Shown piece by piece: positions 18,043-37,378 of a stretch of 64,000 nt of DNA. The stretch comes from Treponemataceae bacterium (GTDB lineage Bacteria > Spirochaetota > Spirochaetia > Treponematales > Rectinemataceae), in the NCBI GenBank assembly GCA_963678065.2, contig CAXXVZ010000005.1:960001-1024000 (forward strand), written 5' to 3'. Numbering within the stretch: position 1 is the first letter of the stretch; each line of letters opens with the position of its first letter. The notes beneath the pieces were generated by a model. It was not told where the DNA came from. It did not search any database and saw only the letters and a program-made list of their open reading frames with translations. A program made the translations under genes and the position numbers.

Positions 18043-18086
18043 ATGGACCCGCATGCGAATCAGGGAATTCTTTAATGAGGACGTGA

Positions 18087-19865: not shown

Positions 19866-19920
19866 TCTCCGGGAGCGGGCGCGGCGGATCGCTGCGAAGT
19901 TGAAGTGAATCGACACAGTT

Positions 19921-19974
19921 TTGATTTTTTCAATCATTATTTTGCTTGACATAATCTCTCAAGATGCTTATCGT
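19921..19974 (+). promoter_or_regulatory. Operator copy 3 (TTGATT-TTTTC-AATCA) and internal promoter TTGACA-17-TATCGT
   Basis: Located upstream of the catabolic genes. Confidence 0.6.
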
Positions 19975-20016
19975 AATCATGACCTTGACGTGAAACTGCG
20001 CGAGGAGAGGATCGAA

Positions 20017-21423: not shown

Positions 21424-21455
21424 CGGACCATTCCGGCGCGAAGGAGGCGGGAACC

Positions 21456-22526
21456 ATGAAAGAACTCTTTGTCGTCAACGAAAATGACAAGCGCATATAC
21501 CGGGAAGAACTCGAGAATTTCCTGCCCGGGGAAATCATAGACATCCATACACATGTCTGGCTGGAAAAATACACGGCGCGGAACGCGGAAACAAAAAAAA
21601 GGGCTGTCACATGGCCCTCACTGGTGGCAAAAGAGAATCCGATAGAGGATCTTCAGGAAACATACCGCCTCATGTTTCCGGGCAAAAAGGTGACGCCTCT
21701 CATATTCAGCGCCATAAAACGGAACGACGACCAGGAAGCCCTGAACGGCTACATCGCGGATTGCGGCGCGAAATACGGAGTACCGACGCTTCTCTACGCT
21801 TTCCCGGAATGGAGTGCCGAGGATCTTTTTTCGAGGATCACGCGGGGGCATCACCTGGGCGTGAAGGTGTATCTGAACCTCGCGCCCGAGTACATACCGG
21901 AAAAAGAAATACGGATATTCGATTTCATTCCGCACCACCAGCTGGAATTGCTGAATTCGAAAAAGATGATCCTCATGCTTCATATCCCGCGGGACGGACG
22001 ACTGGGAGATCCTGTCAATCTGGCGCAGATGCTGGAAATCGAAGAGCGCTATCCCGACATCAATGTCATCTACGCCCATATAGGAAGGGCTTATTGTCCC
22101 GAGGACTTCGGGAAGGCGTTCGAGCTGGCAAAAAAAACGAAAAAACTCACCTTCGATTTTTCGGCCACGACGCAGGATGAAGCCATGTACCGGGCTCTCG
22201 ACTCGGTCGGAGCGGATCGTCTCATGTTCGGTTCCGACCTTCCGATCCTCAGGATGCGCATGCGGCGCATCTGCGAGAACGGCAGGTACGTGAACATAGT
22301 GCCGAAAGGAATGTATGGCGATGTTTCCGGAGATCCGAACATGCGTGAAGCGGATGAGGAGGAAGGCGGAAAGCTGACGTTCTTCATGTACGAGGAATTG
22401 CGGGCGTTCAAGAGGGCGGCGGCGAGAGCGGGCCTTACACGCGGCGAGATCGGGCGGATCTTCTGCGGCAACGCCAAAGACATGATTCATGCGGTCAAAA
22501 TGAATCTCTACGGAGAAGCTTTCTAG
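21456..22526 (+). CDS. Amidohydrolase superfamily metalloenzyme (Amidohydro_2-like)
   Basis: DIHTH, LHIPR, AHIGR, FGSDLP. AAGGAGG RBS; alternative start 21420. Confidence 0.85.
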   Translation: MKELFVVNENDKRIYREELENFLPGEIIDIHTHVWLEKYTARNAETKKRAVTWPSLVAKENPIEDLQETYRLMFPGKKVTPLIFSAIKRNDDQEALNGYIADCGAKYGVPTLLYAFPEWSAEDLFSRITRGHHLGVKVYLNLAPEYIPEKEIRIFDFIPHHQLELLNSKKMILMLHIPRDGRLGDPVNLAQMLEIEERYPDINVIYAHIGRAYCPEDFGKAFELAKKTKKLTFDFSATTQDEAMYRALDSVGADRLMFGSDLPILRMRMRRICENGRYVNIVPKGMYGDVSGDPNMREADEEEGGKLTFFMYEELRAFKRAAARAGLTRGEIGRIFCGNAKDMIHAVKMNLYGEAF

Positions 22527-22613
22527 TCGATGGGCCGCGATTTCCGGACGCCGGTGTCGGTATCGGAGCCGGTGTCGGGGCGCGGGTCACATCCTTCGCG
22601 CGGAGCGTACAAC

Positions 22614-24095
22614 ATGGAATACTTCATCGGGCTTGATCTCGGAAGCACGGCGATAAAGGGAGTTGTGGTTTCCGGCGAAGGGAAGGTGCTCGGGACAGCG
22701 GAAGCGAGGATACAAAAGATCGAGAGCGGCGACGAGACCGCATTCGAGATCGACCCTGAGCTCTTTATCGACGCGGTATTCGGGATCATCAGGCAACTCT
22801 CTTCAGGCAGGGAAAACATAAAGGCCATTTCCTGGGTCTCCGCGAGCGGAAACATCCTTCTGCTCGATGAGAAAAACCAACCCTGTGCGCCGATGATCAG
22901 CTGGCTGGATACGCGGCCTCTGGACGGCAGCGTCGAGGAGTCGCTGGCGGGCATTCCCGTCGAAGCGGTTTACGGGATTGTCGGATGGCCTTTTTCATGG
23001 CAGTTTCCGTTCGGACGCCTTCTGTGGCTGCGCGAGAATCGTCCGGAACTGATGCGCAGGACACTCAGAATCTGCACGAGCAACGACTATCTCGGATATC
23101 GCCTGACCGGAACCTGGGCGATAGACAATTCCACCGCGACGACACTGTACGTGTACGACCAGGTCGGAAAGCGCAAAAACGCCTCTTTCATCGGCCTCCT
23201 CGGATTGAAGCCGGAAATGTTTTCCGACCTTCGCGAGGTCGGGACTCTCCAGGGAAGGATACGTGCGGGAGCATGCAGCCGGACCGGGCTGAACGAAAAC
23301 ACACAAGTCTTTCTCGGATCCTTCGATCATCCGGGCGCAGCCAGGGCATTGAATATACACAGCCAGAGACAGCTGCTGGTGTCCTGCGGCACATCCTGGG
23401 TCGGACTGGTCACGCTTCCGGACAGAAACGCGGGCATCAGGCGGAACATGCTGCTGGATCCCTACGAATCGGGATCGGGCGGCGCATGGTGCGGAATATT
23501 CAGTCTGACAGCAATCGGAAAGACCTTCGATTCCTGGGTAGCCGAAACCTTCAGACGCTGCGGAAAATGGCCCGAGCTGTTTTCCGCAAACGGAAACGCC
23601 GACATGGCGGAACTTTTCCGGATCATGAACCACGAGGCGGGTATTGTCGATCCGCGCGACGCCATTCCGGTTCTGGATATGAGAGGAATGAAACCCGACG
23701 CGGGTAGCCTGGGAACCCTGTTGGGCCATCATTCTCCAGGCAAAATCTTCAGGGCATTGATGGAATGCACGGCATTCGAATTCAAAAAACTGCTTCATGA
23801 AAAAGAAGTGGATCTTGGCGCCATCGATGAAATATCGATGGTCGGAGGGCCGACGGAAAGCCCCGTCTGGCGTCAGATACTCGCCGACGTTCTGGCGAAG
23901 CCTGTCAGTATCCGTTTCGGCAAAACAGCGGGAGCCGTCGGAGCCGCGATCATCGCCGCGAATGGAGCGGGATTCCGTCTGGAAATGAAGGAAGCCGGCA
24001 TGAGGATCGACCCCGACAGGAACTCCGTGAGCATGCTCGAAGAACGATACGGCCGTTTCCGGGAACACAGACTGGAGGAATCATGTCAGACATAA
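22614..24095 (+). CDS. FGGY-family carbohydrate kinase (xylulokinase-like)
   Basis: IGLDLGST, ISWLD, SCGTSWV, VGGPTES..WRQILADV. Confidence 0.88.
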   Translation: MEYFIGLDLGSTAIKGVVVSGEGKVLGTAEARIQKIESGDETAFEIDPELFIDAVFGIIRQLSSGRENIKAISWVSASGNILLLDEKNQPCAPMISWLDTRPLDGSVEESLAGIPVEAVYGIVGWPFSWQFPFGRLLWLRENRPELMRRTLRICTSNDYLGYRLTGTWAIDNSTATTLYVYDQVGKRKNASFIGLLGLKPEMFSDLREVGTLQGRIRAGACSRTGLNENTQVFLGSFDHPGAARALNIHSQRQLLVSCGTSWVGLVTLPDRNAGIRRNMLLDPYESGSGGAWCGIFSLTAIGKTFDSWVAETFRRCGKWPELFSANGNADMAELFRIMNHEAGIVDPRDAIPVLDMRGMKPDAGSLGTLLGHHSPGKIFRALMECTAFEFKKLLHEKEVDLGAIDEISMVGGPTESPVWRQILADVLAKPVSIRFGKTAGAVGAAIIAANGAGFRLEMKEAGMRIDPDRNSVSMLEERYGRFREHRLEESCQT

Positions 24096-25651
24096 AGAAT
24101 TGTTTCGTACCGATAAAAGAGTCCCTGAGAACCTTGTTGGGAAACGAGTATGTCGACCGGGCGATAAAGGCCGCGGGGTTTTTCGAGCCGGAGCGGCTGG
24201 GCGAAATCAGAGACGCCGCCGACGAAGTGGTCGATTTCTACCCCGAAAGCATGAGAGCCAGGTGCGACGAACTGCTCGCATCGGTCGGATCGGTGGTCTG
24301 CCCCGAGTTGGCCGATCAGACGGCCGGAGCGCCGACGGATTCATTCAGGAAGGCCCAGAACAACAAGGCTTCGCCGATCGCCGGCTACGGCTTTCTGCGT
24401 ATCGCCCAGAACGGGAAGCTGTACCTGGTTTCGAAGAGCGAACACTACCACGCCTCGCTCGGGCACAGCTTCCCTGGTTACCGCCTGATCGAGAACGCGA
24501 AAAAGCTCGGAATCGCCAACATCACCCACAACAATACGCGCGGACACATACAGCGCCTCCTTGAACGGGAACTGGTGCGCGTCATCAACGACATCGAGGA
24601 AGGAGAGGCCGCCGAATCGCTCATCGACGCGGCCATCGCTTCGGCCGAGCCCCACACGCTCAATCGCGTCATCAATCTCGAGACGGGCAGCATAGCCTGC
24701 GAAGCGGCCCTGAAAATGATGCTGGCCCGATTCTACAGCCACGAAGCCACGGGAAAGAAACCGGAATACGCGGGAAAGACGCCCGTCATTCTCGTCATGG
24801 CCGACAACGACGGAGGATTGCAGGCCAATTACCATGGCACCAATATCTTCAACCAGATGCTGCGCGGGATGTGGCCCGGCATGTACGAAAAGCTCGAACG
24901 GTCGGGAACGATGATCGTCAGGCCGGTGCGGATCAACGACGCGGAGCATTTCAGGAAGACGGTCGAAGAGTGGGAGGGCGGCGCATTCAAGATCGCCGGA
25001 TTCTTCCACGAGATAATCCTCATGAATTACGGGGCGATCAAACTCGACAGGGAATACCTGCGCGAGGCGTACAGAATATGCGAGTCCCGCGATATTCCCG
25101 TATGCTGCGACGAGATACAGTCCTGCATCTGGTATCCCGACCTCTTCCTGTTCAAGGAATACGGCCTTGAGCCGGATTTCGTCACGCTCGGGAAAGGGTT
25201 CCCGGGAGGACAGTATCCCGCCTCGAAAGTGATCACGACGGCAGCCATGGACAATCTGAGCCAGTTCGGCGCCCTCGTGACGAACGGGCAGGAAGAGCTG
25301 GCCGCGATCTCGTACCTCGTGACCATGAAGTTCGCGCTCGCCAACCGGGATATCACGGTGAAGGTCGGCGATTATTTCGAGACCAGCCTGCGAGAGGTGG
25401 CCGCCCGGCATTCCGGTCTCGTCAACAAAGTGGAGGGATTCCGCCTCCTCGCCTCGCTCTATTTCCACTCCGCGGACAAGGCCATCGCCTTCGTGAAGCT
25501 CCTCAACGGACAGTGCATCGATATCAGCGCGCACACATACAAGGCGAACTGCGAACCTTCGGCGCTGATGAAGCTGCCGCTCACCGCGACCTTCGCGCTC
25601 GCGGATTTCATGACAACGCGGATCGACGCGGCCCTCGCCGCGCTCGAATGA
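24083..25651 (+). CDS. Atypical class III PLP-dependent aminotransferase
   Basis: ASLGH, TGSIACEAALK, NYHG, DEIQS, PDFVTLGKG (PLP Lys). Confidence 0.85.
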   Translation: MSDIKNCFVPIKESLRTLLGNEYVDRAIKAAGFFEPERLGEIRDAADEVVDFYPESMRARCDELLASVGSVVCPELADQTAGAPTDSFRKAQNNKASPIAGYGFLRIAQNGKLYLVSKSEHYHASLGHSFPGYRLIENAKKLGIANITHNNTRGHIQRLLERELVRVINDIEEGEAAESLIDAAIASAEPHTLNRVINLETGSIACEAALKMMLARFYSHEATGKKPEYAGKTPVILVMADNDGGLQANYHGTNIFNQMLRGMWPGMYEKLERSGTMIVRPVRINDAEHFRKTVEEWEGGAFKIAGFFHEIILMNYGAIKLDREYLREAYRICESRDIPVCCDEIQSCIWYPDLFLFKEYGLEPDFVTLGKGFPGGQYPASKVITTAAMDNLSQFGALVTNGQEELAAISYLVTMKFALANRDITVKVGDYFETSLREVAARHSGLVNKVEGFRLLASLYFHSADKAIAFVKLLNGQCIDISAHTYKANCEPSALMKLPLTATFALADFMTTRIDAALAALE

Positions 25652-25668
25652 GGCGAGGATAAGGAAGC

Positions 25669-25749
25669 ATGGACGCGGTGGCGCGCAACCCGCAGGTTCT
25701 CGTGCGCTCGTCCTCGGAATTTCCCTTCGTCCCTGCGGCAGTACTATGA
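25669..25749 (+). other. 26-aa mini-ORF with good RBS (peptide or gene remnant)
   Basis: AAGGAAGC-ATG, MDAVARNPQVLVRSSSEFPFVPAAVL*. Fills the gap between two operon genes. Confidence 0.3.
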
Positions 25750-25764
25750 AAGCGGAGGTCTCAG

Positions 25765-26847
25765 ATGGACATCGAGAGAATCGTCGCTCAGTATGAAGAG
25801 AGGCGGGAAAGCGTTTATGCCCTAATTTCCGGCCTGTATAATCCCGCGGGCGCGACGAAATTCATGGTCCGTCAGATCGTGCCCGCCAATCTCTGGCACG
25901 ACTGCAACGACATTCCGCGCATCGTCGAAAACAATCTCGATTTTTTTGCCCGGCAGCTGGCGACGCCGAGCGACGATCTGCCTTTTCTCGAACCCTGGAT
26001 CGGCACGGGCGTCTACGCGAACGCATTCGGCTGCGACTATATCTGGCGCGAGAAAGAGGCGCCCGCGACCCAGTACCGCTATCACTCGATCGATGAGCTC
26101 GGGGACCTGTCCTACCCCGACTGGAAGGAAAGTCCCGTCATGCGCATGGTGCTCTCCTGCATCGACGCCTTGCACGAGAGCACCGGAGGCAGACTCCCCA
26201 TATCGCTCACCGACACGCAGTCGGCCTTCGACACGGCGACCCTCATCCTCGATGCCGCCGAGCTTTTCACCGCCTGCTATACCGAAGAGGACGCGGTCCA
26301 CGGTTTCATGACGCAGATAAACAAGCTCATCATCGAGTTTTCACGGGTACAGACAGAGCGCATCGGCGCCGGCATGGTCGCGAGCCCGGGCCATCAGATG
26401 CCGGGGATGCCCGGAATCGGAGGACTCTCGCTCAGCGACGACAACCTCGCCGTCGCGTCGCCCCACATAAACGAACTCATATCGTTCCCGCAGAACCGCT
26501 CGCTGGCGGAGGCCTTCGGCGGTCTCGCCATCCACAGCTGCGGCCGCTGGGCCCACACGATGGCGCTTCTCGACAGACTGCCCGGCACGACGATGATCGA
26601 CTGCGCGCTTTCTCCTGACTGCGATCCGTCCTGGAACGAGCCGGAAGAAGTGCGCGATGCCCTGGCCGGCAAGAACATCGTGGCGAAGGTCCGCACCGGC
26701 TGCGATGTGGAAAAGACCATCGACATGCTCGCGAGACTGTACCATCCGAGCCTCAAGCTCTGCGTCGAGATAGGTTTCGACGAGGCTCGCGCGGAGGAGA
26801 ATCATGACCGCGTGCGAAGGGCGCTCGAGTCGCTCTATTTCGGATGA
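25765..26847 (+). CDS. Uroporphyrinogen decarboxylase/MtaA-CmuA family protein
   Basis: ANAFG, TDTQSAFD, LSDD, IHSCG Zn-binding motif. Confidence 0.78.
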   Translation: MDIERIVAQYEERRESVYALISGLYNPAGATKFMVRQIVPANLWHDCNDIPRIVENNLDFFARQLATPSDDLPFLEPWIGTGVYANAFGCDYIWREKEAPATQYRYHSIDELGDLSYPDWKESPVMRMVLSCIDALHESTGGRLPISLTDTQSAFDTATLILDAAELFTACYTEEDAVHGFMTQINKLIIEFSRVQTERIGAGMVASPGHQMPGMPGIGGLSLSDDNLAVASPHINELISFPQNRSLAEAFGGLAIHSCGRWAHTMALLDRLPGTTMIDCALSPDCDPSWNEPEEVRDALAGKNIVAKVRTGCDVEKTIDMLARLYHPSLKLCVEIGFDEARAEENHDRVRRALESLYFG

Positions 26848-26901
26848 CGAGGGAATCCGCTCGCTCGCGGCCCGACGGCCGTCTCATTCCGCACGGCCGG
26901 C

Positions 26902-27552
26902 TCATTCCGCGATGAGGGGCCCCACGTAGGAATGCGAGAAATCCATGTCGGCGAGAAGGGCTTCGTTGAAGGCACCGGGATCTTTTCGCGCGAAGGCTTC
27001 GATCAGCGAGCGGTGTATATGGAAGGATCGACCTGAGTCCTGGCTTTGGAAATTGATCGAGAGATAGGGGCCAATCCGCGCCCAGAGCCCATTCACGATC
27101 TCGAGCAGTATCGGGCAATCCGCGAACGAATAGATGAAAAAATGCATGTCGTGATTCAGGGCGATGAAGCGCTTCGCGTCGATCTTTGCCCCGCCCATCT
27201 CATCGAGAATGCGCGAGGCTTCATCGATGGCGCTCTCCGGCCTCAAGAGACAGGCCCGCTCCCCGAGGCGGGGCTCGAGAATCCTCCGTATCGAAAAAAT
27301 CTCCTCGAACTGAGCCCGGTTGAGCGTGTTGATGCGATAATCTCTGTTGTCCCGCCGGAGGACGACCTTATCGGACTCCAGCTGGACCAGAGCCTCTCTG
27401 ACCGGCGCGACGCTGACACCGAATTTGGCGGAGAGGTCCCGCAAGGTTATGGATTCTCCCGGTAAAAGTTCCCCGGCGATGATGAGATCCCGCAGGCTCG
27501 CGTAGACTTTGGCCCGGAGGGTCTCCTTGCTGATAGCGGCTATCTCGGCCAT
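26902..27552 (-). CDS. GntR/FadR-family regulator (FCD domain)
   Basis: VYASLRDLIIAGELLPG, FGVSVAPVREAL, NHDMH. Confidence 0.92.
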   Translation of the reverse strand: MAEIAAISKETLRAKVYASLRDLIIAGELLPGESITLRDLSAKFGVSVAPVREALVQLESDKVVLRRDNRDYRINTLNRAQFEEIFSIRRILEPRLGERACLLRPESAIDEASRILDEMGGAKIDAKRFIALNHDMHFFIYSFADCPILLEIVNGLWARIGPYLSINFQSQDSGRSFHIHRSLIEAFARKDPGAFNEALLADMDFSHSYVGPLIAE

Positions 27553-27673
27553 GTACCTTGTGCTCCCGGCATCCAGCCAAGCGGTTCCGACCGCGGGATG
27601 CGCTCGCCCGAATGGGTGGATAGAGTATAGAGACTGCACCTTCTCCGTACAAGATCGCCGAAAACCGTCTCCA

Positions 27674-29242
27674 CTACTTTTTGTCCGGGAATGAGATCAT
27701 CCCGTCCCAGCTGTTGAGAACCTTCCCCGCCCGCGCCTCCTCCTCAGAAAACCAGTGTGCGGTCACACTCTTCAGTTCCGTGAAGAACCGGATGCCGTCC
27801 GTCCCCATCGCGTGCAGATCCCCGAAAAACGAGTTCTTGTGCCCCGTGAACCCGAACACCCCCAGCGGCACGGGAATCCCGACGTTGACCCCCACCTGCC
27901 CGCCATGCGTCCGCTTCGCAAACTCCCGCGCATAGTACCCACTCTGCGTGTAGATCACCGAACCGTTCGCATACTCGTTCCCGTTCATGAGCGCAAGTCC
28001 CTCCTCGAAGTCCTTCACCCGCTTGATGCACAGAACGGGTCCGAAGACCTCTTTGTCCCCGATGCTCATCCCCGGTTTCACGTGATCGAAGAGCGTTGGT
28101 CCGACATAGAACCCTTTTTCGTAGCCCTTCACGACGACATCCCGTCCGTCCAGCACGAGTTCGGCCCCCTCCTTCACTCCCTTCCCGATCCAGTCGACGA
28201 CGAATGCGCGGTGTTCCGCGTTCACCACCGGCCCCATCTGGCTCGACGCTTCGTACGCCGGCCCCACGGTGAGCTCCGACATGAGCTTCGCGAGGATCGC
28301 CACGAGTTCATCCGCAATCTCTTCCTCTACAACGACCGCGGGCAGGGCCATGCAGCGCTCGCCCGCACAGCCGCAGGCCGAGTTGACGATACCCCGGGCT
28401 GTGCGCTCAAGGGCGGCATCCTTGAGCACGAGCGCATGGTTCTTCGCCTCCGTGAGGCACTGCACCCGCTTCCCCGCGGCCGCCGCCGTGGCGTAGATAT
28501 GTCTCCCCACCCCCGTCGAGCCCACGAAGGATATCCCCCTCACATCGGGATGCCCGAGGAGTATCTCCGCCTCATGCCTCGAACAGGTGACCAGATTGAG
28601 CACCCCGGGTGGCAATCCCGCCTCGGCCCAGAGCTCCATGATCCGCATCGAGGTCTGCGGCGTGAAGCTCGCCGCTTTGATGACCATCGTGTTCCCCGTG
28701 GCGATGCACAGGGGCGCCATCCAGCCCATCGGAATCATGGCCGGGAAGTTCCAGGGCGCTATCCCCGCGAAGACTCCCAGGCTCTCCATGTACTGCGTCG
28801 TGTCGTAGCCCGTCGTGCAGTTCATGAGGGCGGGACCCTTCATGAGCTGCGGGATACCGCAGGCGAACTCCACGACTTCCGTGACCTTGAGCACATCGCC
28901 CATCGCCTCGCCCAGCACCTTGCCGTTCTCGCGGGCGCAGAGCTGTGTGAGTTCGTCGAGATGTTTGTCCAGAAGGGCCTTCATCCGGAACAGCACCTGC
29001 ACGCGCTTGTTCGGCGGGGTATCCGACCAGGCGGGGTAGGCCGCCGCGGCCGAAGCGACCGCCGATTCGACCTCATCTGAGGTGCACTGGGGTGCGCGGG
29101 CGATGATTTCGCCCGTGGACGGATTGTAACAATCCATGTACTTGTCGGTCTTCGAAGTCTTCCACCCGCCATCGACCCAGTACTGAAGCTGCCGCACTCC
29201 GGCCGCAGCATCGGTTTTATCATTACCCATATCGTTATCCAT
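27674..29242 (-). CDS. mmsA: CoA-acylating (methyl)malonate-semialdehyde dehydrogenase
   Basis: PWNFPAMIP, SFVGST, AKNH, GCAGERCMA, EVFGPV, VGVNVGIPVP, SFFGDLH. Confidence 0.93.
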   Translation of the reverse strand: MDNDMGNDKTDAAAGVRQLQYWVDGGWKTSKTDKYMDCYNPSTGEIIARAPQCTSDEVESAVASAAAAYPAWSDTPPNKRVQVLFRMKALLDKHLDELTQLCARENGKVLGEAMGDVLKVTEVVEFACGIPQLMKGPALMNCTTGYDTTQYMESLGVFAGIAPWNFPAMIPMGWMAPLCIATGNTMVIKAASFTPQTSMRIMELWAEAGLPPGVLNLVTCSRHEAEILLGHPDVRGISFVGSTGVGRHIYATAAAAGKRVQCLTEAKNHALVLKDAALERTARGIVNSACGCAGERCMALPAVVVEEEIADELVAILAKLMSELTVGPAYEASSQMGPVVNAEHRAFVVDWIGKGVKEGAELVLDGRDVVVKGYEKGFYVGPTLFDHVKPGMSIGDKEVFGPVLCIKRVKDFEEGLALMNGNEYANGSVIYTQSGYYAREFAKRTHGGQVGVNVGIPVPLGVFGFTGHKNSFFGDLHAMGTDGIRFFTELKSVTAHWFSEEEARAGKVLNSWDGMISFPDKK

Positions 29243-29278
29243 ATCGTTCCTCCCGGAAATCCATCTACACAGTTTGGT

Positions 29279-30313
29279 TCATAGCGCGAAGGCTTCGATC
29301 GGCGCCCAGCCCGTCTCCACGAATTGGGCGAGCGTTTTCTGGACGACGCCGAAGGTTATAAACTCCGCCGGCTTCAGCCCATCAGGTTCGTATGCGCGGA
29401 TGAACTCAGGGATAGCGGACAGCCTTTTCAGAACAGCGGGTTCGACCGGGACGTCTATGCGTTCCTCGAACGGCCCGTCGAGCTTCGCGAGCATCGCCTG
29501 AATCTTCGGGTGAACGGAGAACGACATATCGGCGCCGGCCAGGCTCGTCGCGTGATACGCGCCGCGCATACCTGCGGGCATCAGCACGGCATCGTATCCC
29601 CGTTCGGCGAAAACAGCCCGCGCCCGTTTCATTATCGCCGTCCCGCATTGCACAATGTCCGATTCCAGAACCTCTGCCCTGCTGTCCGCCGCGACATCCC
29701 GGATGTAGTCGTCGATGCGGCCGACCATGACCACGGCGAAGCAGCGCCCAGGCGCGAGGCCGGAGGCCTTCGCCCTCATCGAGCCCCGCCGGTATCGCTC
29801 GGCCGCGGCCAGGGCCTGCGCCAGCGTAAAGCCCACCGTGGCGGTGACGGTGATGCCCAGGGCAGCGCACTCCTCGAGCGCCTCGAGGCCCGCCGCCGTG
29901 GCCGGCAGCTTTACGGCGATATTGGGCGCCCACGCGGCCAGCCTCTGCGCCATCCTGAACATGCCCTCGGCGTCGCCCGGCTTCCGTGGATTCACCTGCG
30001 CGCAGGCGTAGCCTTGAGACCCTCCGCTCGCGCGGTAGACAGGCTCCACCATGGTCGCGGCCGCGCGCGTGACGACCTCGAGTATCGCCTCCGCTTTTTG
30101 TGCGCTATCGGCAGCGGCGGGGATTTTTGCCAGAAGAGGGCGCCAGAAATCCGGTATCGCTGCCAGCGATGTCGCGACCAGCGGGGGATTCGTCGTGATA
30201 CCGGTCGCGCCATTCTCGATGCCCGCCCTTATTTCGCTGGGATCGGCAGAATCGTGCCACCATTTTGTGGGCGTGTTCGTCGACATCCACTGAAGAAATC
30301 TATTTTCCGCCAT
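29279..30313 (-). CDS. Transaldolase/F6P-aldolase family protein (paralog B)
   Basis: WHDS, TTNP, NIAVKLPAT (Schiff-base Lys), MVGRIDD. Confidence 0.88.
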   Translation of the reverse strand: MAENRFLQWMSTNTPTKWWHDSADPSEIRAGIENGATGITTNPPLVATSLAAIPDFWRPLLAKIPAAADSAQKAEAILEVVTRAAATMVEPVYRASGGSQGYACAQVNPRKPGDAEGMFRMAQRLAAWAPNIAVKLPATAAGLEALEECAALGITVTATVGFTLAQALAAAERYRRGSMRAKASGLAPGRCFAVVMVGRIDDYIRDVAADSRAEVLESDIVQCGTAIMKRARAVFAERGYDAVLMPAGMRGAYHATSLAGADMSFSVHPKIQAMLAKLDGPFEERIDVPVEPAVLKRLSAIPEFIRAYEPDGLKPAEFITFGVVQKTLAQFVETGWAPIEAFAL

Positions 30314-30367
30314 ATGCTTTTTTCTCCTTCGCCCCCACCACGGGCTGCGCGGACAGGGTTACCTCAG

Positions 30368-31426
30368 TCAGGTCCACCTCGGCGATGTTCCGTCGGTTCC
30401 GTAGATCTCGAGGGGCGCCCACCCTGCCTCGATGAACTGCGAGAGCGTCCGCTGGGCAAGGCCGAACGTAAAGAACTCGTGCGGGGCGAGGCCATCAGGC
30501 TCGTAGGCCCGCGCGAACTCAGGAATTCTTGAGAGTCTGTCGATCACGCTCTTCCCGATGGGGACGTCGAAGCGGGTCTCCTGCGGGGGATCGGCCTCCA
30601 GTATCATCCTCTGGATGCGCGGGTGGAGCGAGAATGTCATATTCGCCCCGGCGAGTTCCGTGAGGTGGTACACGCCGCGCAGGCCGGCGGGCATAATCAC
30701 GGTCTCGTAGCCCCGGGCCCCGGCGATCTCGTACGAGCGCTTGGCGACGGCCAACCCTGCCTGCGCGATTTCTTCGGCGGCGAAATCGAGGCCGAGGTCC
30801 CTCGCGACGTCGCGGATGTAATCGTCCAGCCTCCCGACCTGCTGCACCGCGAAGCAGGGCCGCGTCGCTATTCCATTCCTGCGCGCCCGACAAAGCCCCT
30901 TCCGGTAGCTCTCCGACACCGCGATGAACTGGGCCACCGAGAAGTTGATGGTCGCACAGACGGCGACGCCCTCCGCGGCGAGTTCCTCCAGCACCTCGAT
31001 CCCGGCAGCCGTGCTCGGAAGCTTTACGGCGACATTGGGTGCCCAGCGCGAGACCCTGCGGGCCATCTCGAGCATGCACAGGGCGTCCGTCGCCTTCGTC
31101 GGATCGAGCTGGCCAAAGGCGTATCCGTGGAGGCCGTGCGTCGCGCGGAATATCGGCTCGACCATACCGGCGGCGCGCGTGGCCACCGCCTCGAGGCAAG
31201 CCTCGGCGCGCCGCTCGTGCGCGACCGAGGCCGGAATGGCTTCGACTAGTTTCTTCCAGTATTCCGGGCGGGCCTGCAAGGTCTTGTAGGTCAACACCGG
31301 GTTCGTCGTGACGCCCAGAGCGCCATTTCTGACGGCGGATTCGATCTCATCGGGTATCGCGGAATCGTGCCACCATCTGGTCGGCGTATCCTCGGTCAAC
31401 CACTGCAGATAGTTCCTTTTGTCCAT
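30368..31426 (-). CDS. Transaldolase/F6P-aldolase family protein (paralog A)
   Basis: WHDS, TTNP, NVAVKLPST, QVGRLDD. Confidence 0.88.
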   Translation of the reverse strand: MDKRNYLQWLTEDTPTRWWHDSAIPDEIESAVRNGALGVTTNPVLTYKTLQARPEYWKKLVEAIPASVAHERRAEACLEAVATRAAGMVEPIFRATHGLHGYAFGQLDPTKATDALCMLEMARRVSRWAPNVAVKLPSTAAGIEVLEELAAEGVAVCATINFSVAQFIAVSESYRKGLCRARRNGIATRPCFAVQQVGRLDDYIRDVARDLGLDFAAEEIAQAGLAVAKRSYEIAGARGYETVIMPAGLRGVYHLTELAGANMTFSLHPRIQRMILEADPPQETRFDVPIGKSVIDRLSRIPEFARAYEPDGLAPHEFFTFGLAQRTLSQFIEAGWAPLEIYGTDGTSPRWT

Positions 31427-31453
31427 TTCTCGCCTGCCTTGAGGATCGGGGGA

Positions 31454-32500
31454 TCAATCGGCAGGGAAGAACATCCCCTTGATGCCCCTCTCGTCCTGAA
31501 TGTCCTTAAAAACACGCTCCCATTCCCCGATCCCCGTCCGGTGCGTGATGAGCCTGGACAGGTCATACGGTGTAGAGGCCATCAGCTTGAGCGCTTTGTC
31601 CCAGGAGCTGTAGCTCGAGCTGAAGTTGAAATGGAGATCCAGCGCCTTGAACATCGCGGAGTTCCACTTGATCCGGGCCATATCCCCGGCTCCGAGTCCT
31701 ATGGCGCATATCCTTCCGCAGGTCTTGGCCATATCGACGATCTGCACTATCGCGGGATTCGAGCCGCTCGTCTCGATGACGAGATCGGCGCCCTTCCCCT
31801 GTGTCATTTCGAGCACCTTTTTTACAGGGTCCTGCCGCTCCACGTTGATGACCTCGTCGACGCCGAGGGACAGGGCTACGGGGAAGCGGACGGCTTCGCT
31901 CTTCTCCATGCCCGTCATGACGACCCTGTGGGCACCGCAGGACTTGGCCACGAAGGCGGCCAGGATGCCGATGGGCCCCGCGCCTGTCACCACGACGAAA
32001 TCGGAGCACTCCACGCGCGCGCGCTCCGTAACTTCGTACACAGCCACCGCCAGAGGCTCGGCCAGCGCGGCGACGTCATAGGGGACCTCTTTGTATATCC
32101 TGTGCACGAGCACCTCCGGCATGACGATGTAATCCGTCATCGCCCCGTTGACGCCCCAGCCGGGAGCGCGCCTGTGCACGCAGAGATGGATTTTCCCCTC
32201 GCGGCAGGCGTCGCAGACGCCGCAGGCACCATTCTTGGGTTCGGCGACGACCCGGTCGCCAACGCTGAAGCGAGTGACGCCGCTACCGATCTCCTCGATC
32301 TCCCCCGAGAACTCGTGGCCGAGCACCACAGGGGGCCAGTAGCGCGCGAACTCGTCGCGAAGAATATGGATATCGGTCGCGCAGATCCCCGCCGCCTTGA
32401 TTTTTATCAACACCCAGTCCGCTCCGGGCAGTCGGGGCTTCTCGATATCCCGGACTTCTACATGACCCGGCCCTTTGGCTACTTTCATCAATGCTTTCAC
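31454..32500 (-). CDS. Zn-dependent MDR dehydrogenase (polyol/sugar-acid type)
   Basis: GICATD, GHEFSG, CGVCDAC..C, EPLA, GAGPIG. GTG start. Confidence 0.92.
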   Translation of the reverse strand: MKALMKVAKGPGHVEVRDIEKPRLPGADWVLIKIKAAGICATDIHILRDEFARYWPPVVLGHEFSGEIEEIGSGVTRFSVGDRVVAEPKNGACGVCDACREGKIHLCVHRRAPGWGVNGAMTDYIVMPEVLVHRIYKEVPYDVAALAEPLAVAVYEVTERARVECSDFVVVTGAGPIGILAAFVAKSCGAHRVVMTGMEKSEAVRFPVALSLGVDEVINVERQDPVKKVLEMTQGKGADLVIETSGSNPAIVQIVDMAKTCGRICAIGLGAGDMARIKWNSAMFKALDLHFNFSSSYSSWDKALKLMASTPYDLSRLITHRTGIGEWERVFKDIQDERGIKGMFFPAD

Positions 32501-32531
32501 GAATCCCTCCCCGCAAAATGTTCACAGAAAA

Positions 32532-33236
32532 TCAAACGCCCAAATAGGCTTTCTTGACATCGTTGTTCGCCAATAGATCCTGTCCCCGGCCCTCCAGGGT
32601 TATCATCCCATCCTTCAGGATGTATGCGCGATCGGAAACCGAGAGAGCTTTCTTCGCGTTCTGCTCGACGAGGAGGATCGTGACATCAGAAGACCGCAGC
32701 GAGACGATCGTCCTGAAAATATCCGACACGACCATCGGCCCCAGCCCGAGAGAGGGCTCGTCCAACATCAGGAGGCGCGGCTCCGCCATGATTGCGCGAC
32801 CGATGGCGCACATCTGCTGCTCCCCGCCGCTTAGGGACCCCGCCAGCTGTCCCCTCCGCTCCAGGACACGAGGGAAAAGCTCATACACTTTTTCCAGGTT
32901 GTCCGCGCGCTTGGCCTTGGCCCTTTTGCAAATCGAGCCCATCACGAGATTCTCTTCGACCGTCATGCTCGGGAAGAGCCTGCGGCCCTCGGGAACCTGG
33001 ATCAGGCCCAGCTCGACCCGGGCTCCTGCCGAAAGGCCGGAGATGTCCTTCCCGTCAAACGTGATCCGCCCCCGCATGTTCCCCAGTATGCCGGAGATCG
33101 CCTTTATCAAGGTGCTCTTGCCCGAGGCGTTCGCGCCGATGAGCGTGACGATCTCGCCTGTATGTACACCCATGCTCACGTTCCTGATCACCTGGAGATC
33201 ACCGTAGCTAACGGATACACCGGTCAGACTAAGCAT
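32532..33236 (-). CDS. livF: HAAT (Liv-type) ABC ATPase
   Basis: GANASGKS, VPEGRRLF, LSGGEQQM, DEPSLGL, VEQN. Confidence 0.9.
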   Translation of the reverse strand: MLSLTGVSVSYGDLQVIRNVSMGVHTGEIVTLIGANASGKSTLIKAISGILGNMRGRITFDGKDISGLSAGARVELGLIQVPEGRRLFPSMTVEENLVMGSICKRAKAKRADNLEKVYELFPRVLERRGQLAGSLSGGEQQMCAIGRAIMAEPRLLMLDEPSLGLGPMVVSDIFRTIVSLRSSDVTILLVEQNAKKALSVSDRAYILKDGMITLEGRGQDLLANNDVKKAYLGV

Positions 33237-33957
33237 CGTAGTCGTCTCCCAAGTAGGCTTTGATCACAGTGTCGTTGTGGATTATTTCCTGCGGACTGCC
33301 CTCCGCGATTTTTTCCCCGTTGGCCAGGACGATCACAGTCTCCGTCAAGTTGATCACCGCGCGCATGATATGCTCTATCAGCAGTATGGATACTCCGGAG
33401 TCGCGGATCTTCCGGATATGGAGGCCCAGATCGTCGACCTCGGAAGGGGTCAGGCCAGCCATGACTTCGTCCAGGAGTAAAAGCCTGGGCCTCGTCGCGA
33501 GGGCCTTGGCCACTTCCAGTCTCTTTCTGTCCGGAATGCCGAGATTCTTGGCGATCACGTTCTTCCGCGAGTCGAGGCCGAGGAATGCGACCGTTTTCTC
33601 GGCCTCCTCCCTCGCGGCCTCCATGCTGTTTGTCCGCAGAAGCGCCCCGACGAGGACGTTCTCGAGTACGGACAGGTTCTGGAGAGGCTTCGGAATCTGG
33701 AATGTCCTTCCGATCCCGAGCCGACACACCTGGAAACTTTTGAGCCCGGAAATCGGCTTCCCCTGGAAGACCACCACGCCATCGTTGAGGGGAAGCGCGC
33801 CGGAGATCATATTGAAGAGGGTGGTCTTGCCGGCTCCATTCGGCCCGATGAGACCCATGATCTGCCCCTCGGCGAGGTCGAAATCGACCTTGTTGACAGC
33901 CGTCAGGCCGCCGAAGCGCTTCGTCACGCCGCGGCAGCCAAGGAGTGCGCCGCTCAT
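33229..33957 (-). CDS. livG: HAAT ABC ATPase
   Basis: FGGLTAV, GPNGAGKTT, GRTFQ, IEH, AYLG. Confidence 0.9.
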   Translation of the reverse strand: MSGALLGCRGVTKRFGGLTAVNKVDFDLAEGQIMGLIGPNGAGKTTLFNMISGALPLNDGVVVFQGKPISGLKSFQVCRLGIGRTFQIPKPLQNLSVLENVLVGALLRTNSMEAAREEAEKTVAFLGLDSRKNVIAKNLGIPDRKRLEVAKALATRPRLLLLDEVMAGLTPSEVDDLGLHIRKIRDSGVSILLIEHIMRAVINLTETVIVLANGEKIAEGSPQEIIHNDTVIKAYLGDDYDA

Positions 33958-34937
33958 CTCGTCGCTCCCTCTCGCCTGGGCGCCGCGAACAGAGTGTTGA
34001 AGGCTCCGGTCAATCCACCCGGAAGGAAGTAGATTGTAAGAACGATGGCGATTCCGTAGATGACCATGCTGGAACCCGCAAGCCTTCCTCCGATCAGACT
34101 CGTCGTGAGTTCGGAAATCGGCACGAGAATGACCGCGCCGAAGAGCGGCCCGAACGTGGAACGTTGTCCGCCGACCAAGGGCAGGATCAGCATGAGAATG
34201 GAGAGATCCATGCCCAGGATTGTGAACGGATCGACCATGAGGACGTATTGCGCGAAGAAGGTCCCGCCCAAAGCAGTCATGAAGGCGCTGATCGCCGCGG
34301 CAATTATTTTATACAATGCCGGATCGATGCCCAGGGCCTCCGCGGCGTTCTGGTCCTCGCGGATCGCGGCCAGGTAGTGGCCCAATTTGGAGCGCGCGAT
34401 GAAGGCAGTGACCAGGAGAACTATCGCGAGAAGCGCGACGATGATGTAATAGAATGGAACCTTCGAGACGAATTCGTATTTCCAGAATCCCATTTTCAGG
34501 GGGACGAGGAGCCCCTGTGCGGCTTTGATTTTAAAAGGCCCTATTCTCTCGGTGGCGACAATGAAAAGGCGGAATGTTTCTGCGAACGCGATTGTCGCCA
34601 GGGTATAGTACGTTCCCTTGAGACGCAGGCAGGGGATGGCGATCGCCAGCGCGACCAGCACGGCCAGGATGCCTCCTGCGAGCATGCCCAGCCATGGGCT
34701 GATCCCGAATTGTGCGAACAGTATCGTCGAGGTATAGGCGCCGATTCCCGCGTAGACGGCGTGTCCCATCGAGACCTGCCCGGCGAGTCCTCCCACGATG
34801 GACCACGAGCTCGACTGGTAGGCATAATAGAAAACGATGATCAGCAGATGGATGATATAGGAGCTGCGCACGAAAAGTGGCACCGCCAGAAGCGCTGCGC
34901 CGACCATCAATATCGGGATTGCGTTGAATTTCTTCAT
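33954..34937 (-). CDS. livM: HAAT ABC permease
   Basis: GQVSMGHA, YYTLAT, AIREDQNAAEALGI. Start 34937 or 34955. Confidence 0.88.
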   Translation of the reverse strand: MKKFNAIPILMVGAALLAVPLFVRSSYIIHLLIIVFYYAYQSSSWSIVGGLAGQVSMGHAVYAGIGAYTSTILFAQFGISPWLGMLAGGILAVLVALAIAIPCLRLKGTYYTLATIAFAETFRLFIVATERIGPFKIKAAQGLLVPLKMGFWKYEFVSKVPFYYIIVALLAIVLLVTAFIARSKLGHYLAAIREDQNAAEALGIDPALYKIIAAAISAFMTALGGTFFAQYVLMVDPFTILGMDLSILMLILPLVGGQRSTFGPLFGAVILVPISELTTSLIGGRLAGSSMVIYGIAIVLTIYFLPGGLTGAFNTLFAAPRREGATR

Positions 34938-34986
34938 GTCCGGGTATTCTCCCATCGATGTGGTTTCGGGAAGGTACGATCCGCTG

Positions 34987-35862
34987 TCACAGCTCTTTCC
35001 CCATGAGACCTCTCGGCCTTACGATTATCACGATCAGGAATACGATGAAGATGAACATCTGGGCGTAACTCGAGTTGAAGAATGTCGCTCCGAGCGCCTC
35101 GACTCCTCCCACGATCAATCCTCCGACGAGCGTTCCGAGGATCGAGCCGAGCCCGCCCAGGACGACGATGATGAAAGCTTTCAGCTGGAAGACATCGCCG
35201 ACGGTCGGGTTGATGGAATAGAACGGGAGAATGACCATTCCCGCCACGCCCACGGTGGCCGTGCAGATCGCGAAACCCAAACGGAATATCCGACGTTCGC
35301 TGATACCCATCAGCTTCGCGGAATCCATGTCCTGGCTGAGAGCACGGATCGACCTTCCGAGATCGGTATTCTTGAGGAAAAAGAATATCGCTCCGTACAC
35401 CACAAGGGTGATCAGGGCGGCGACGAGCTTCCCGATATTGATGATCAGACCGAAGGCATCGAAGGTCCTGCCTGAGATGAACGAAGTCACACTATGGAAT
35501 TCCGGTCCGAAAATTATCTGCGCTCCGTTCACCATGATCAGACTGAAGCCCATGGTCAGCAACAGAGCGACATCGGAGTTGGTCGTGCGTTCGCGGACGA
35601 TCACGGGCTCGCTTATGATTGCCAATATGTATCCGAAGGCGAAGGAGGCCGGGACAACGATAAACAGTCCCAGGAATGGATCGAGGTGCAGGTACTTGTA
35701 GAGAATTTCCATCAAGTACATCCCGAGCATCATGACTGCGCCGTGACCAAAGTTCACGAACTTCATGACTCCGTACAAAATGCTCAACCCGAGCGAAACG
35801 AGACCGTAAACGCATCCGACGAGGAGGCCGGAGACAATATTCTGCGCTAGTAGCAATCCCAT
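34987..35862 (-). CDS. livH: HAAT ABC permease
   Basis: GVMKFVNFGHG, GRSIRA, VVLGGLGS, RPRGLMG. Confidence 0.9.
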   Translation of the reverse strand: MGLLLAQNIVSGLLVGCVYGLVSLGLSILYGVMKFVNFGHGAVMMLGMYLMEILYKYLHLDPFLGLFIVVPASFAFGYILAIISEPVIVRERTTNSDVALLLTMGFSLIMVNGAQIIFGPEFHSVTSFISGRTFDAFGLIINIGKLVAALITLVVYGAIFFFLKNTDLGRSIRALSQDMDSAKLMGISERRIFRLGFAICTATVGVAGMVILPFYSINPTVGDVFQLKAFIIVVLGGLGSILGTLVGGLIVGGVEALGATFFNSSYAQMFIFIVFLIVIIVRPRGLMGKEL

Positions 35863-35885
35863 CGGTTTCTCCTGGCATGGAATCC

Positions 35886-35913
35886 GGGGAGGCTTCCCTT
35901 AGGGGGCCTCCCC
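35886..35913 (-). other. Stem-loop after livK
   Basis: GGGGAGGCTTCC-ctta-GGGGGCCTCCCC (stem contains G:T pairs as read on the + strand). Confidence 0.5.
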
Positions 35914-35922
35914 CGACGAAAA

Positions 35923-37137
35923 TCAGGGCAAGGGAGAAATAGCTTTTACCGTCGCGACATCTCTCGGCCAGATAGTCTTGAATCCTTTGATGCCATCGCC
36001 GTCCTGGTACTGGCCCATAAGATACATTCCGGTCGTGCACTGGCCGGTCGCGTCAAAGTTGAGCACATTTCCCTTGTAGTACTGGGAGGCAAGCGCCTTG
36101 TTGGCGGGATCGCTGATGCGAAGATTCGCGAATGAATCCCTGACCTTGTCGGGCTTCGTCGATGCGGCTTTTTCGAATACTTCCTTGATCACGTACACGG
36201 CGCCGAATCCGAACGCAGCGTGGCTCGTAGCGGTGACGCCGCTGTACTTCGACTCAAAGCTCTTTATGAAGCTTTGCACGTTTGAATTGGCCATATCCGG
36301 GGCCCAGGCACCGGCGTAGCACCAGCCTTTCCGCAGTTCAAGGTTGTTGACGAAGGTCGGATCGGCGTATCCGCCCCATCCTATCGCCCATTTCGGCTTG
36401 AAGCGGAGCTCCCTCATCGTCTTCGCGATCAAGAGCGCATCCTGTACGTACGAATTGGCGAGAAACGCGTCGGGGTTGATGGCCTTCACCTTGTTGATCA
36501 TGGGATTCACGTCCGCCGCTCCATGCGGATACGCCTCTTCGAACACCAGCTTGATCGCGTTCAGGCCAAGCCATTTTCTGACGCCATTGGCGAAGGTTTG
36601 ACCGCCCTCCGTGTTTTCATATGCCATCGCCACTGTCTTGACGCCCGATTCCACGAGGAATTGCACCAAGTCGCGAGTGCCGTACTCAGCCTTGGGCTGC
36701 GTTCTGAACACGTACTTGAAGCCTTGCTCGGTGATACCGTCGGAAGTGGCGTTCGGTACGTAGTAGGGGATCTGGTATTTCTCCGCGATGGAAACTGTGG
36801 GCAAGGTCACGGCGCTCTGGAAGGCGCCGACGAGCAGATGCACCTTCTCCACCGTGACGAGTCTTTCCGCTTCGGACATGCCGACCTGCGGGTCGCCGCG
36901 ACTGTCCGCGTAGATCATTTTGATCTTGGCGCCGCCGAGCGACTTGATGCCGCCTGCAGAATTGATCTCCTCGACTGCCAGATCGAAGCCCCGCCTCTGC
37001 TGTTGGCCATCATTGGCCGTACCGCCGCTCAGCGGAAGAATGTTGCCGATGCGCACCTCCGCCACATTCTGGGCAAAAGCGCCGATCGCGATTGAGCATA
37101 ACCCAACGAGCATGAGAAGAAACGTTTTCCTTTTCAT
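35923..37137 (-). CDS. livK: HAAT ABC substrate-binding protein
   Basis: Signal peptide, IGNILPLSG, AVEEINSAGGI, GAFQSAVT, YVFR. AAGGAG RBS before ATG 37137. Confidence 0.88.
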   Translation of the reverse strand: MKRKTFLLMLVGLCSIAIGAFAQNVAEVRIGNILPLSGGTANDGQQQRRGFDLAVEEINSAGGIKSLGGAKIKMIYADSRGDPQVGMSEAERLVTVEKVHLLVGAFQSAVTLPTVSIAEKYQIPYYVPNATSDGITEQGFKYVFRTQPKAEYGTRDLVQFLVESGVKTVAMAYENTEGGQTFANGVRKWLGLNAIKLVFEEAYPHGAADVNPMINKVKAINPDAFLANSYVQDALLIAKTMRELRFKPKWAIGWGGYADPTFVNNLELRKGWCYAGAWAPDMANSNVQSFIKSFESKYSGVTATSHAAFGFGAVYVIKEVFEKAASTKPDKVRDSFANLRISDPANKALASQYYKGNVLNFDATGQCTTGMYLMGQYQDGDGIKGFKTIWPRDVATVKAISPLP

Positions 37138-37328
37138 ACACCCACTCCTTTGGAATCTGTAATCGACGCGATGCGTCTGGACTTCGACCACTCAAGAATG
37201 CAGGCATAGCCGGATCTCCTGGGCAGGTGATTTTCTCACCGCCCCGATCGAACTGCACACTTTCTGTGCGCGCGGCGAATCGTATCCCTCCGCGTAACGC
37301 ACTCTCTGTATCGTGTGTTCACATCCTG

Positions 37329-37378
37329 ATGCAATGTTCAATGTTCTATGTTATAACATTGAACATTGCATTTGTCAA
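37329..37378 (-). promoter_or_regulatory. Promoter TTGACA-17-TATAAC overlapped by a perfect 17-bp inverted repeat of 7-mers (likely GntR operator)
   Basis: ATGCAATGTTCAATGTT-N9-AACATTGAACATTGCAT (37329-37371). Confidence 0.75.

Follow-up and report, generated by a model that had tools for sequence, protein, structure and literature searches.

A kinase-free operon with two transaldolase-family enzymes that probably splits sugar acids in a Treponemataceae bacterium

We describe here a ten-gene operon from a Treponemataceae bacterium (assembly GCA_963678065.2, contig CAXXVZ010000005.1). It lies on the minus strand, at 37137..26902, of the whole stretch of 64,000 nucleotides that was analysed (positions 960,001 to 1,024,000 of the contig), which is called the window below. 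Its ten open reading frames (ORFs) form one unit, consisting of livKHMGF, a zinc-dependent medium-chain dehydrogenase/reductase (MDR), two proteins of the transaldolase (TAL) family named TAL-A and TAL-B, mmsA and gntR. The operon probably functions in splitting sugar acids, and the exact acid imported is considered below. In the reading that we favour, and that we hold with reasonable confidence, a sugar acid would be imported, oxidised at C5 and cleaved by a TAL enzyme with no phosphorylation, and the aldehyde formed would be oxidised by MmsA. The proposal that TAL cleavage feeds MmsA is based on the link of one TAL-B subclade with mmsA, on the uronate and aldonate genes among the neighbours, and on the replacement of MmsA in a related locus (L125). 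The genes, their residues and their neighbours are established directly, and every reaction is inferred from them.

37329..37378, minus strand: promoter/operator, a sigma-70-type promoter overlapped by an inverted repeat with 20-bp arms
35923..37137, minus strand: livK, LivK-type binding protein, 404 aa, PF13458
34987..35862, minus strand: livH, LivH-type permease, PF02653 (BPD_transp_2)
33954..34955, minus strand: livM, LivM-type permease, PF02653 (BPD_transp_2)
33229..33957, minus strand: livG, LivG-type ATPase, PF00005 and PF12399
32532..33236, minus strand: livF, LivF-type ATPase, PF00005
31454..32500, minus strand: MDR, 348 aa, Zn-dependent, PF08240 and PF00107, Zn ligands present
30368..31426, minus strand: TAL-A, 352 aa, transaldolase fold, TAL_FSA PF00923
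29279..30313, minus strand: TAL-B, 344 aa, TAL_FSA PF00923
27674..29242, minus strand: mmsA, 522 aa, CoA-acylating (methyl)malonate-semialdehyde dehydrogenase, Aldedh
26902..27639, minus strand: gntR, GntR-FCD regulator, PF00392 and PF07729, alternative start ATG 27552

An earlier note, made from the DNA letters, had described a single co-directional unit with its own promoter/operator and no kinase, and this observation is confirmed by the ORFs, the protein families, the promoter and the repeat. The intergenic gaps, in order from livK to gntR, are 60, 31, -4, -8, 31, 27, 54, 36 and 34 nt, the last becoming 121 nt with the alternative gntR start. A near-consensus promoter can be read directly, with the -35 element TTGACA at 37378-37373, a spacer of 17 nt, and the -10 element TATAAC at 37355-37350; the promoter scanner requires T at position 6 of the -10 element, and this promoter is therefore outside its list. 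The inverted repeat that overlaps it has 20-nt arms (37329-37348 and 37352-37371) that are 95% complementary, and a genome-wide search with its core gave a single match, the window site. The repeat is a putative operator, to which the GntR protein would probably bind. A Pfam/NCBIfam scan of the window proteins found no kinase gene inside the operon. In another sequencing run (X7), one contig covers 29189-40000 (with 121 differing letters) and another 22000-27722, and the contigs are interrupted only within the duplicated mmsA. Because they span the locus, the gene order does not stem from an assembly error. An RNA run (X19) gave only scattered contig pieces and no evidence of expression, and there is no Rfam match in the analysed sequence.

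Relatives of the two TALs were studied in 80 metagenome loci and 5 genome loci in which genes were called. Merging at 85% TAL identity gave 51 groups, 39 of them with at least three other genes; the tally is without L165 and L167, and the large gut group was joined by single linkage. Many loci are partial, fragment typing is rough, and the B call for L054/L055 comes from a poorly called fused ORF. The order MDR-TAL-A-TAL-B is found in L035 (73%), TAL-A-TAL-B-mmsA in L068 (76/73%), and TAL-A-mmsA-TAL-B-MDR in L108; TAL-B is followed by mmsA in L094 and L090, and L091, like L108, pairs a TAL with MmsA. The TAL-B tree has a subclade made up of the window protein and those of L068, L094 and L090 (support 0.89), in which mmsA is the next gene in all four cases, the MmsAs of these loci being only 67% identical to the one in the window. 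In L125, a B-type TAL is followed by a SauS-like acylating aldehyde dehydrogenase (ALDH; 528 vs 600) and an MmdA-like carboxyltransferase, a methylmalonyl-CoA-decarboxylase-like subunit (742 vs 999), both below cut-off, whereas the sister clusters L123/L167 carry MmsA instead. This looks like a non-homologous replacement of MmsA, and therefore suggests that the semialdehyde has the skeleton of malonate.

In the wider family, GarR is above its cut-off in all 7 TAL-adjacent copies tested, and the other neighbours include UxaE (L085, L124), an IolO-like epimerase (L085, 303 vs 300), short-chain dehydrogenases (SDRs) resembling gluconate 5-dehydrogenase, and split transketolases. A lactonase, one SDR and one MDR accompany the TAL in both L073 and L074, with a mutarotase in L073 only, and in L047 a glycyl-radical enzyme, a TRAP transporter and GarR lie beside the TALs, paralleling YbiW-FSA. 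An aldehyde-handling enzyme (MmsA, GarR, GAPDH-II/PGK, AOR or acylating ALDH) is present within 6 kb in 14 of the 39 groups, or in 12 if groups with AOR only are removed; AOR may act upstream rather than on the cleavage product, and the count is therefore given both ways. By comparison, PfkB is within 6 kb in 3/39 groups and FGGY in none. The control over all genes of the window's genome gave an aldehyde-handling enzyme in 143/4455 cases and PfkB in 454/4455, and that over sugar-type genes gave 11/48 and 13/48, respectively. The scarcity of kinases around the TALs is clear, and the excess of aldehyde enzymes over sugar genes is modest. The family gave 1832 database matches at E 0.001 among 8000 scored candidates, and close TALs are rare in the sampled genomes (3/401, 2/301 and 7/69, counting the own or centre genome); a viral-contig scan found none, and a genome-contig scan with one protein found 2 loci only. 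A TAL adjacent to iol genes in Clavibacter (33%) was considered as an IolJ replacement and excluded, since its cluster has iolC and an aldolase of its own.

Two recurrent arrangements may be added here. A gut cluster (L039-L050, L113) encodes a glycyl-radical enzyme, its activase, a TRAP transporter, LacI, TAL-B, TAL-A and GarR, and is possibly a carboxylate counterpart of the YbiW-FsaA anhydrosugar pathway. A cluster shared by L123, L125, L167, L212 and L213 holds a B-type TAL, a split PEP-synthase-like phosphotransferase, a cupin, a lactonase-like gene, an MDR, a transketolase, a metallo-hydrolase, an SDR, and either MmsA or the acylating ALDH with the MmdA-like subunit.

TAL-A and TAL-B are 53% identical and belong to the TAL superfamily by their PF00923 matches (E 1e-29 and 3.5e-33), by their barrel fold, and by K135, the equivalent of the Schiff-base Lys (K132 in TalB, K85 in FSA). 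The predicted model of TAL-A (pLDDT 96.2) has a Neisseria TAL as its best fold match (TM 0.77, 20% identity), and the type-2 transaldolases (Neisseria 3CLM, Corynebacterium 3R5E) match it with TM 0.77-0.80 at about 20% identity. Both proteins are below all TAL cut-offs (best 93.7 and 88 vs 367 in NCBIfam), and PDB searches found no solved member of this long-TAL family. Residues were mapped by alignment with E. coli TalB and FsaA, taken from the K-12 record. TAL-A has D21, N42, Q106, K135, C157, T159, V194, Q196, R199, G248 and R250; TAL-B differs at two of these sites (T157 and M196). Compared with classical TALs such as TalB, the sites D17, N35, K132, T156, R181 and R228 are kept (D21, N42, K135, T159, R199 and R250), but E96, N154, S176, F178 and S226 are changed (to Q106, C157/T157, V194, Q196/M196 and G248). 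These features are general: Q106, V194 and R250 are invariant in 237/237 close homologues, the site of the phosphate ligand S226 is Gly or Ala in all 237, and Gln occupies the TalB E96 site in 91/93 distant full-length representatives. In place of the E96 and F178 of a classical transaldolase there are Q106 and Q196/M196; of the Gln59 and Tyr131 of FSA, the Gln is present and the Tyr is absent (Q196/M196). With the Glu of TalB and the Tyr of FSA both missing, TAL-A and TAL-B are neither classical TALs nor FSAs. The catalytic roles that we take E96 and F178 to have agree with the titles of PDB variants.

The donor pocket of both enzymes is FSA-like and hydrophobic in the residue alignment, which would favour a 6-deoxy donor (hydroxyacetone) over dihydroxyacetone. 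The F178Y switch and an Arg/Arg/Ser anion site are described in PMC3962226, where hydroxyacetone is said to be preferred when the residue at S176/A129 is hydrophobic. The TALs could therefore use a 6-deoxy donor; the dihydroxyacetone named as C3 product in the earlier note is thus less favoured by the pocket, and is kept as a possible product. TAL-A and TAL-B form separate clades, each found also without the other. As 15/51 groups are A-only and 21/51 B-only (many loci being partial), an obligate heterodimer looks unlikely. Each is probably an enzyme in its own right, the two acting on different stereoisomers or deoxy forms.

No TAL, MDR or Liv protein is above any specific NCBIfam cut-off among those listed. 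The binding protein scores 89.6 vs 477 as a LivJ/LivK amino-acid binder. The LivJ residues S79, T102 and Y202, which presumably form the carboxylate side, are kept as S108, T131 and Y230, but E226, presumably the amino-binding Glu, has become G255, and Gly is also aligned at this site in the four close homologues of the protein. Because the carboxylate-side residues are kept and the amino-side Glu is lost, the ligand is probably a carboxylate that has no amino group. The best PDB match of the binding protein is 8WCH (E 1e-36), a pyroglutamate binder according to PMC11485210, and this match is too distant for pyroglutamate to be transferred as the ligand. Plasmids hold matches of up to 38%, and database relatives are at 49-82%; two of three plasmid contexts of its relatives have a split transketolase, a glycerol dehydrogenase, an SDR and a CoA ligase, and the third lacks them. 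The similarity searches of family genomes, plasmids and PDB named no ligand.

The MDR is below the curated cut-offs for Tdh (250.4 vs 380), IolM (207 vs 450) and IdnD (110.8 vs 469), and is thus neither a threonine dehydrogenase nor an aldonate 5-dehydrogenase (IdnD) by score. It is a candidate aldonate dehydrogenase, which would yield a keto acid. Its three nearest relatives (L035, L074 and L036; support 0.977) all flank TAL-A. A search made independently of the TALs gave eight further orthologues (49-60%, 7 genomes; two of the eight loci incomplete), with no FGGY or PfkB gene near any of them. Their neighbours include LarA hexonate-epimerase-like genes (3, directly adjoining the MDR in L231, where it is partial, L232 and L234), AOR (3) and a lactonase (1). 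Three of these MDR orthologues (L235, L237 and L238) lie beside a PDH-like E1/E2 complex, an acylating ALDH and an ADP-forming CoA ligase, a set that in L237 ends in a malate racemase (above cut-off) and a malic enzyme; it is possibly an acetoin-dehydrogenase-like cleavage of keto sugar acids with a gain of ATP. A deoxy acid would be compatible with the malate ending, and an ordinary acid with the LarA-type 2-epimerase, since a 2-epimerase needs a 2-hydroxyl.

MmsA is above the cut-off of TIGR01722 (546.5 vs 448.5), the (methyl)malonate-semialdehyde dehydrogenase model, and keeps the Arg-Cys motif R296-C297. An Arg and a Glu of the solved members, which we take to be the second carboxylate ligand and the NAD selector, are replaced by K119 and S192. 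At the K119 site, the pyrimidine-linked members of the clade keep Arg and the others have Lys. These motif changes were dropped as evidence of a substrate switch, most being common to pyrimidine-linked clade members. MmsAs of the same clade at 70-74% identity sit in reductive pyrimidine clusters, which makes malonate semialdehyde the default substrate, and one at 82% is in an aminotransferase cluster.

The favoured route would then run as follows. The ABC importer would take up a sugar acid with six carbons (an aldonate, or a pair of epimeric or deoxy variants), and the MDR would oxidise C5 to give an unphosphorylated 5-keto acid, a ketose with its carboxylate in the position of the phosphate in fructose-6-phosphate. 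In TAL-A and TAL-B, Lys135 would form the Schiff base, R199 and R250 would hold the carboxylate, and the C3-C4 bond would be cut. The products would be a C3 ketol, which would either leave as dihydroxyacetone or hydroxyacetone or be transferred to glyceraldehyde-3-phosphate (G3P), and a malonate-type semialdehyde, which MmsA would oxidise and decarboxylate to an acyl-CoA. The configuration cut by TAL/FSA enzymes is found in fructuronate, 5-keto-D-gluconate and 5-dehydro-2-deoxygluconate; the cleavage would give tartronate semialdehyde, or malonate semialdehyde where C2 is deoxy.

Within this route, we give an even chance to malonate semialdehyde (from a 2-deoxy acid, leading to acetyl-CoA), a somewhat smaller one to tartronate semialdehyde (from an ordinary or 6-deoxy hexonate, leading to glycolyl-CoA), and a slight one to other products. 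For the 2-deoxy acid there are the known chemistry of MmsA and the L125 swap. For the ordinary hexonate there are the GarR, UxaE and IolO neighbours and the A-site signature, which is identical in the GarR loci; moreover, 2-deoxyhexonates are rare. Most of the GarR-linked relatives point to tartronate semialdehyde. However, a GarR-annotated enzyme has been proposed from expression data to make 3-hydroxypropionate, thus handling malonate semialdehyde (PMC7618129), which weakens GarR as proof of tartronate semialdehyde and leaves the GarR neighbours not decisive for the substrate. The interpretation in the earlier note is therefore partly supported: a kinase-free TAL cleavage of a keto sugar acid feeding MmsA agrees with the TAL-B-mmsA link, the uronate and aldonate neighbours and the residues of the binding protein, but its 2-deoxy substrate, 5-dehydro-2-deoxygluconate, does not gain the same support. 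The window's genome has two dihydroxyacetone-kinase loci and one glycerate 2-kinase-type gene. In a bolder version, which we consider unlikely, the transaldolase fold would have a third catalytic class, represented by TAL-A and TAL-B, which lack the Glu of TalB and the Tyr of FSA. A single dehydrogenase would supply them with two unphosphorylated 5-keto-hexonates, epimers of each other, for cleavage, and MmsA would convert tartronate semialdehyde to glycolyl-CoA by oxidative decarboxylation. Common sugar acids would then reach glycolyl-CoA by a natural route that spends no ATP, and the MmsA family would gain a new substrate.

A number of points weigh against the favoured route. The co-occurrence of TALs with mmsA and MDR, which the earlier note had put forward as a check, holds for the TAL-B subclade and the three nearest MDR relatives but not more widely: MmsA is within 6 kb in only 5/51 groups, and TAL-A/B genes are near none of the eight wider MDR orthologues, one of which has a distant TAL-family member. 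The latter result weakens MDR and TAL as a fixed pair, and fits an aldonate dehydrogenase feeding varied cleavage enzymes. The full ten-gene operon was recovered in no locus beyond close strains of the organism, and the binding protein has no match above 35% in 68 family genomes (at most 35%, in 3/68). The contig carries a second mmsA in a sister operon about 41 kb from the first, with 98.8% DNA identity between the two; the window gene is a recent duplicate of that copy, and may have joined this operon only recently. The excess of aldehyde enzymes over sugar-type genes is small with or without AOR, and that control includes the genome's own operons. The kinase screen covered PfkB, FGGY, Dak and GckA types only; an FGGY kinase (22614-24095, plus strand) lies in a separate convergent operon, 2.8 kb past gntR and 5.2 kb from TAL-B, and the PEP-synthase-like phosphotransferase in L123 and L125 suggests that some B-type TALs may see phosphorylated substrates. 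For the TALs themselves, no acid/base residue was identified, H254, Q195/Q196 and C157 being candidates for it, the best PDB identity is about 23%, and the long-TAL family has no characterised member.

It is quite unlikely, in our view, that the keto acid itself is imported, with the MDR acting downstream to reduce part of the semialdehyde or the dihydroxyacetone/hydroxyacetone and so balance the NAD(P)H of MmsA. Such a role would be consistent with the finding that no TAL locus of the set examined has both an MDR orthologue and GarR, and with the frequent position of MDR orthologues beside AOR or ALDH (L036, L076, L233-L235, L237), a common arrangement of alcohol, aldehyde and acid enzymes. 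The LarA hexonate-epimerase-like genes directly adjacent to MDR orthologues argue against it, as do L073 and L074, where one SDR, one MDR and a lactonase match the two oxidations needed from an aldose to a keto acid. Alternatively, the TALs might act on phosphorylated ketoses made by kinases elsewhere, such as the neighbouring FGGY or IolC-like PfkBs, with mmsA serving products of the 5-dehydro-2-deoxygluconate-6-phosphate type or being a recent passenger. In favour of this, the TALs keep the two phosphate-binding Arg, there are 43 FGGY/PfkB genes in the genome, no short TAL in it scores above cut-off, L123/L125 carry the phosphotransferase, and the 33% Clavibacter relative follows an iol cluster with iolC. 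We nevertheless rate this as very unlikely: kinases are scarce near the TAL groups, the best IolC score in the genome is 139.7 vs 300, and the TalB phosphate ligand S226 is lost. The TAL Arg pair binds the anion of the aldehyde half, and this must be a carboxylate for MmsA.

It is highly improbable that the substrate is either a sulfosugar or an amino-sugar acid, whose cleavage would yield an aldehyde bearing a sulfonate or an amino group. The sulfo-TAL pathway provides a precedent (PMC7491151), SauS-like ALDHs follow TALs in L125 and L128, class III aminotransferases lie beside some distant TALs (L005, L130-L132), and the best models for the MDR are threonine dehydrogenases. Against this, the neighbours scanned included neither a sulfoquinovosidase nor an SQ isomerase, the TAL-adjacent reductases score as GarR rather than sulfolactaldehyde reductase (e.g. 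441 vs 188), BmSF-TAL is a short and distant relative (E 9e-9), and the binding protein lacks the amino-side Glu. Least credible of all is a mosaic with no pathway, in which chance would have joined sugar genes to mmsA and a Liv transporter that serve branched-chain or beta-amino acids. The MmsA clade does serve other pathways, in the pyrimidine and aminotransferase clusters mentioned above, and the mmsA duplication is recent; but the genes are tightly spaced under one promoter, MDR-TAL-A-TAL-B recurs in L035 and TAL-A-TAL-B-mmsA in L068, and the operon has no aminotransferase gene.

The sugar-acid route proposed here resembles the sulfoglycolytic transaldolase pathway in principle, with a carboxylate in place of the sulfonate, but would not be a member of it. 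That pathway uses SftT/SqvA and a sulfolactaldehyde (SLA) dehydrogenase or reductase (PMC7491151 and PMC12890257). In both, a TAL-fold enzyme would cut an unphosphorylated anionic ketose, with no kinase, and an enzyme encoded nearby would oxidise or reduce the aldehyde half. SftT, however, is short (about 220 aa), of classical type and only distantly related to TAL-A/B; the operon has two long paralogues whose Glu site is occupied by Gln, entry would be by oxidation and not isomerisation, and the aldehyde would pass to a CoA-acylating, decarboxylating enzyme. The operon encodes no short SqvA/SftT-type TAL, SQ isomerase, sulfoquinovosidase or SLA enzymes. With the IolC-IolJ-IolA route it would share an MmsA/IolA-type enzyme oxidising a semialdehyde cut from a 5-keto acid, but it has an importer and MDR instead of the IolC kinase and class II IolJ aldolase, and no IolC is above cut-off in the genome. 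E. coli FsaA acts with YbiW, splitting 1-deoxyfructose-6-phosphate to hydroxyacetone and G3P (PMC13450708). The TALs share with FsaA the Gln at the E96 site, the hydrophobic donor pocket, and relatives beside a glycyl-radical enzyme; they differ in lacking an equivalent of Tyr131, in length (350 vs 220 aa), and in that their relatives occur with acid-type transporters and GarR/MmsA, not in a phosphosugar route. The earlier note had not recognised the pathway as described, and the literature searched, which leaves most subscription journals outside its coverage, likewise gave no description of a TAL-based sugar-acid route.

Other loci of the same genome (G000) have related content. The genome encodes six long TALs and, next to a UxaE-like gene, a short non-canonical one; it also has four genes of MmsA type, six GarR-like ones and 13 transketolase-N matches. 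The sister operon (L001:6336-18257; G000:C5:1030336-1042257) has a third TAL, a Liv ABC transporter, an IolO-like epimerase, an SDR, an MDR, a split transketolase and mmsA, and the gene set of L069 resembles it, with GarR replacing MmsA. A third mmsA (88%) is found at L003:7295-15512 with a phosphate butyryltransferase-like gene, butyrate kinase, an acetolactate-synthase-like TPP enzyme, a lactonase and an esterase; another cluster, kept in three genomes of the family (L007:4763-16460, L175, L176), has a split transketolase, RpiB-like and IolD-like (119 vs 715) genes and mmsA. The inositol locus (L185:8281-18300; G000:C3:368281-378300) has iolG, iolD and iolE above cut-off, an iolB-like gene, type II GAPDH, and PGK-like, malic-enzyme-like and LarA malate-racemase-like genes; it has no iolJ or transketolase, and, with no iolC above cut-off in the genome, would fit a kinase-free inositol route via malate semialdehyde. 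The GAPDHs next to TAL-A in L073/L074 share 73-75% identity with that of the inositol locus.

Within the window, the convergent sugar operon (15619-26847, plus strand) encodes a regulator, an ABC transporter, an arabinose-isomerase-like protein, an amidohydrolase and the FGGY kinase; the same interval has a divergent class III aminotransferase (522 aa) and a URO-D-like gene, and URO-D-like genes recur near the long-TAL family (L005, L006, L051, L064, L126, L165). Two tandem 18-nt copies, 94% alike, lie between the convergent operons at the gntR stop (26875-26910). At 448-8714 there are isomerase/epimerase barrels, PfkB, a class II aldolase and a fucose-isomerase/SftI-like gene, in a cluster divergent from an iolB above cut-off (7896-8714).

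If the favoured route is correct, a family labelled only as 'transaldolase' would open sugar acids without ATP, rather than serve the pentose phosphate pathway. The family would also provide aldolases that natively accept unphosphorylated acceptors, a stated aim of aldolase engineering (PMC3962226). The operon is compact, making reconstitution feasible with four purified enzymes. The route would be a carboxylate counterpart to sulfoglycolysis, and would explain many orphan GarR/MmsA genes in uncultured and gut bacteria.

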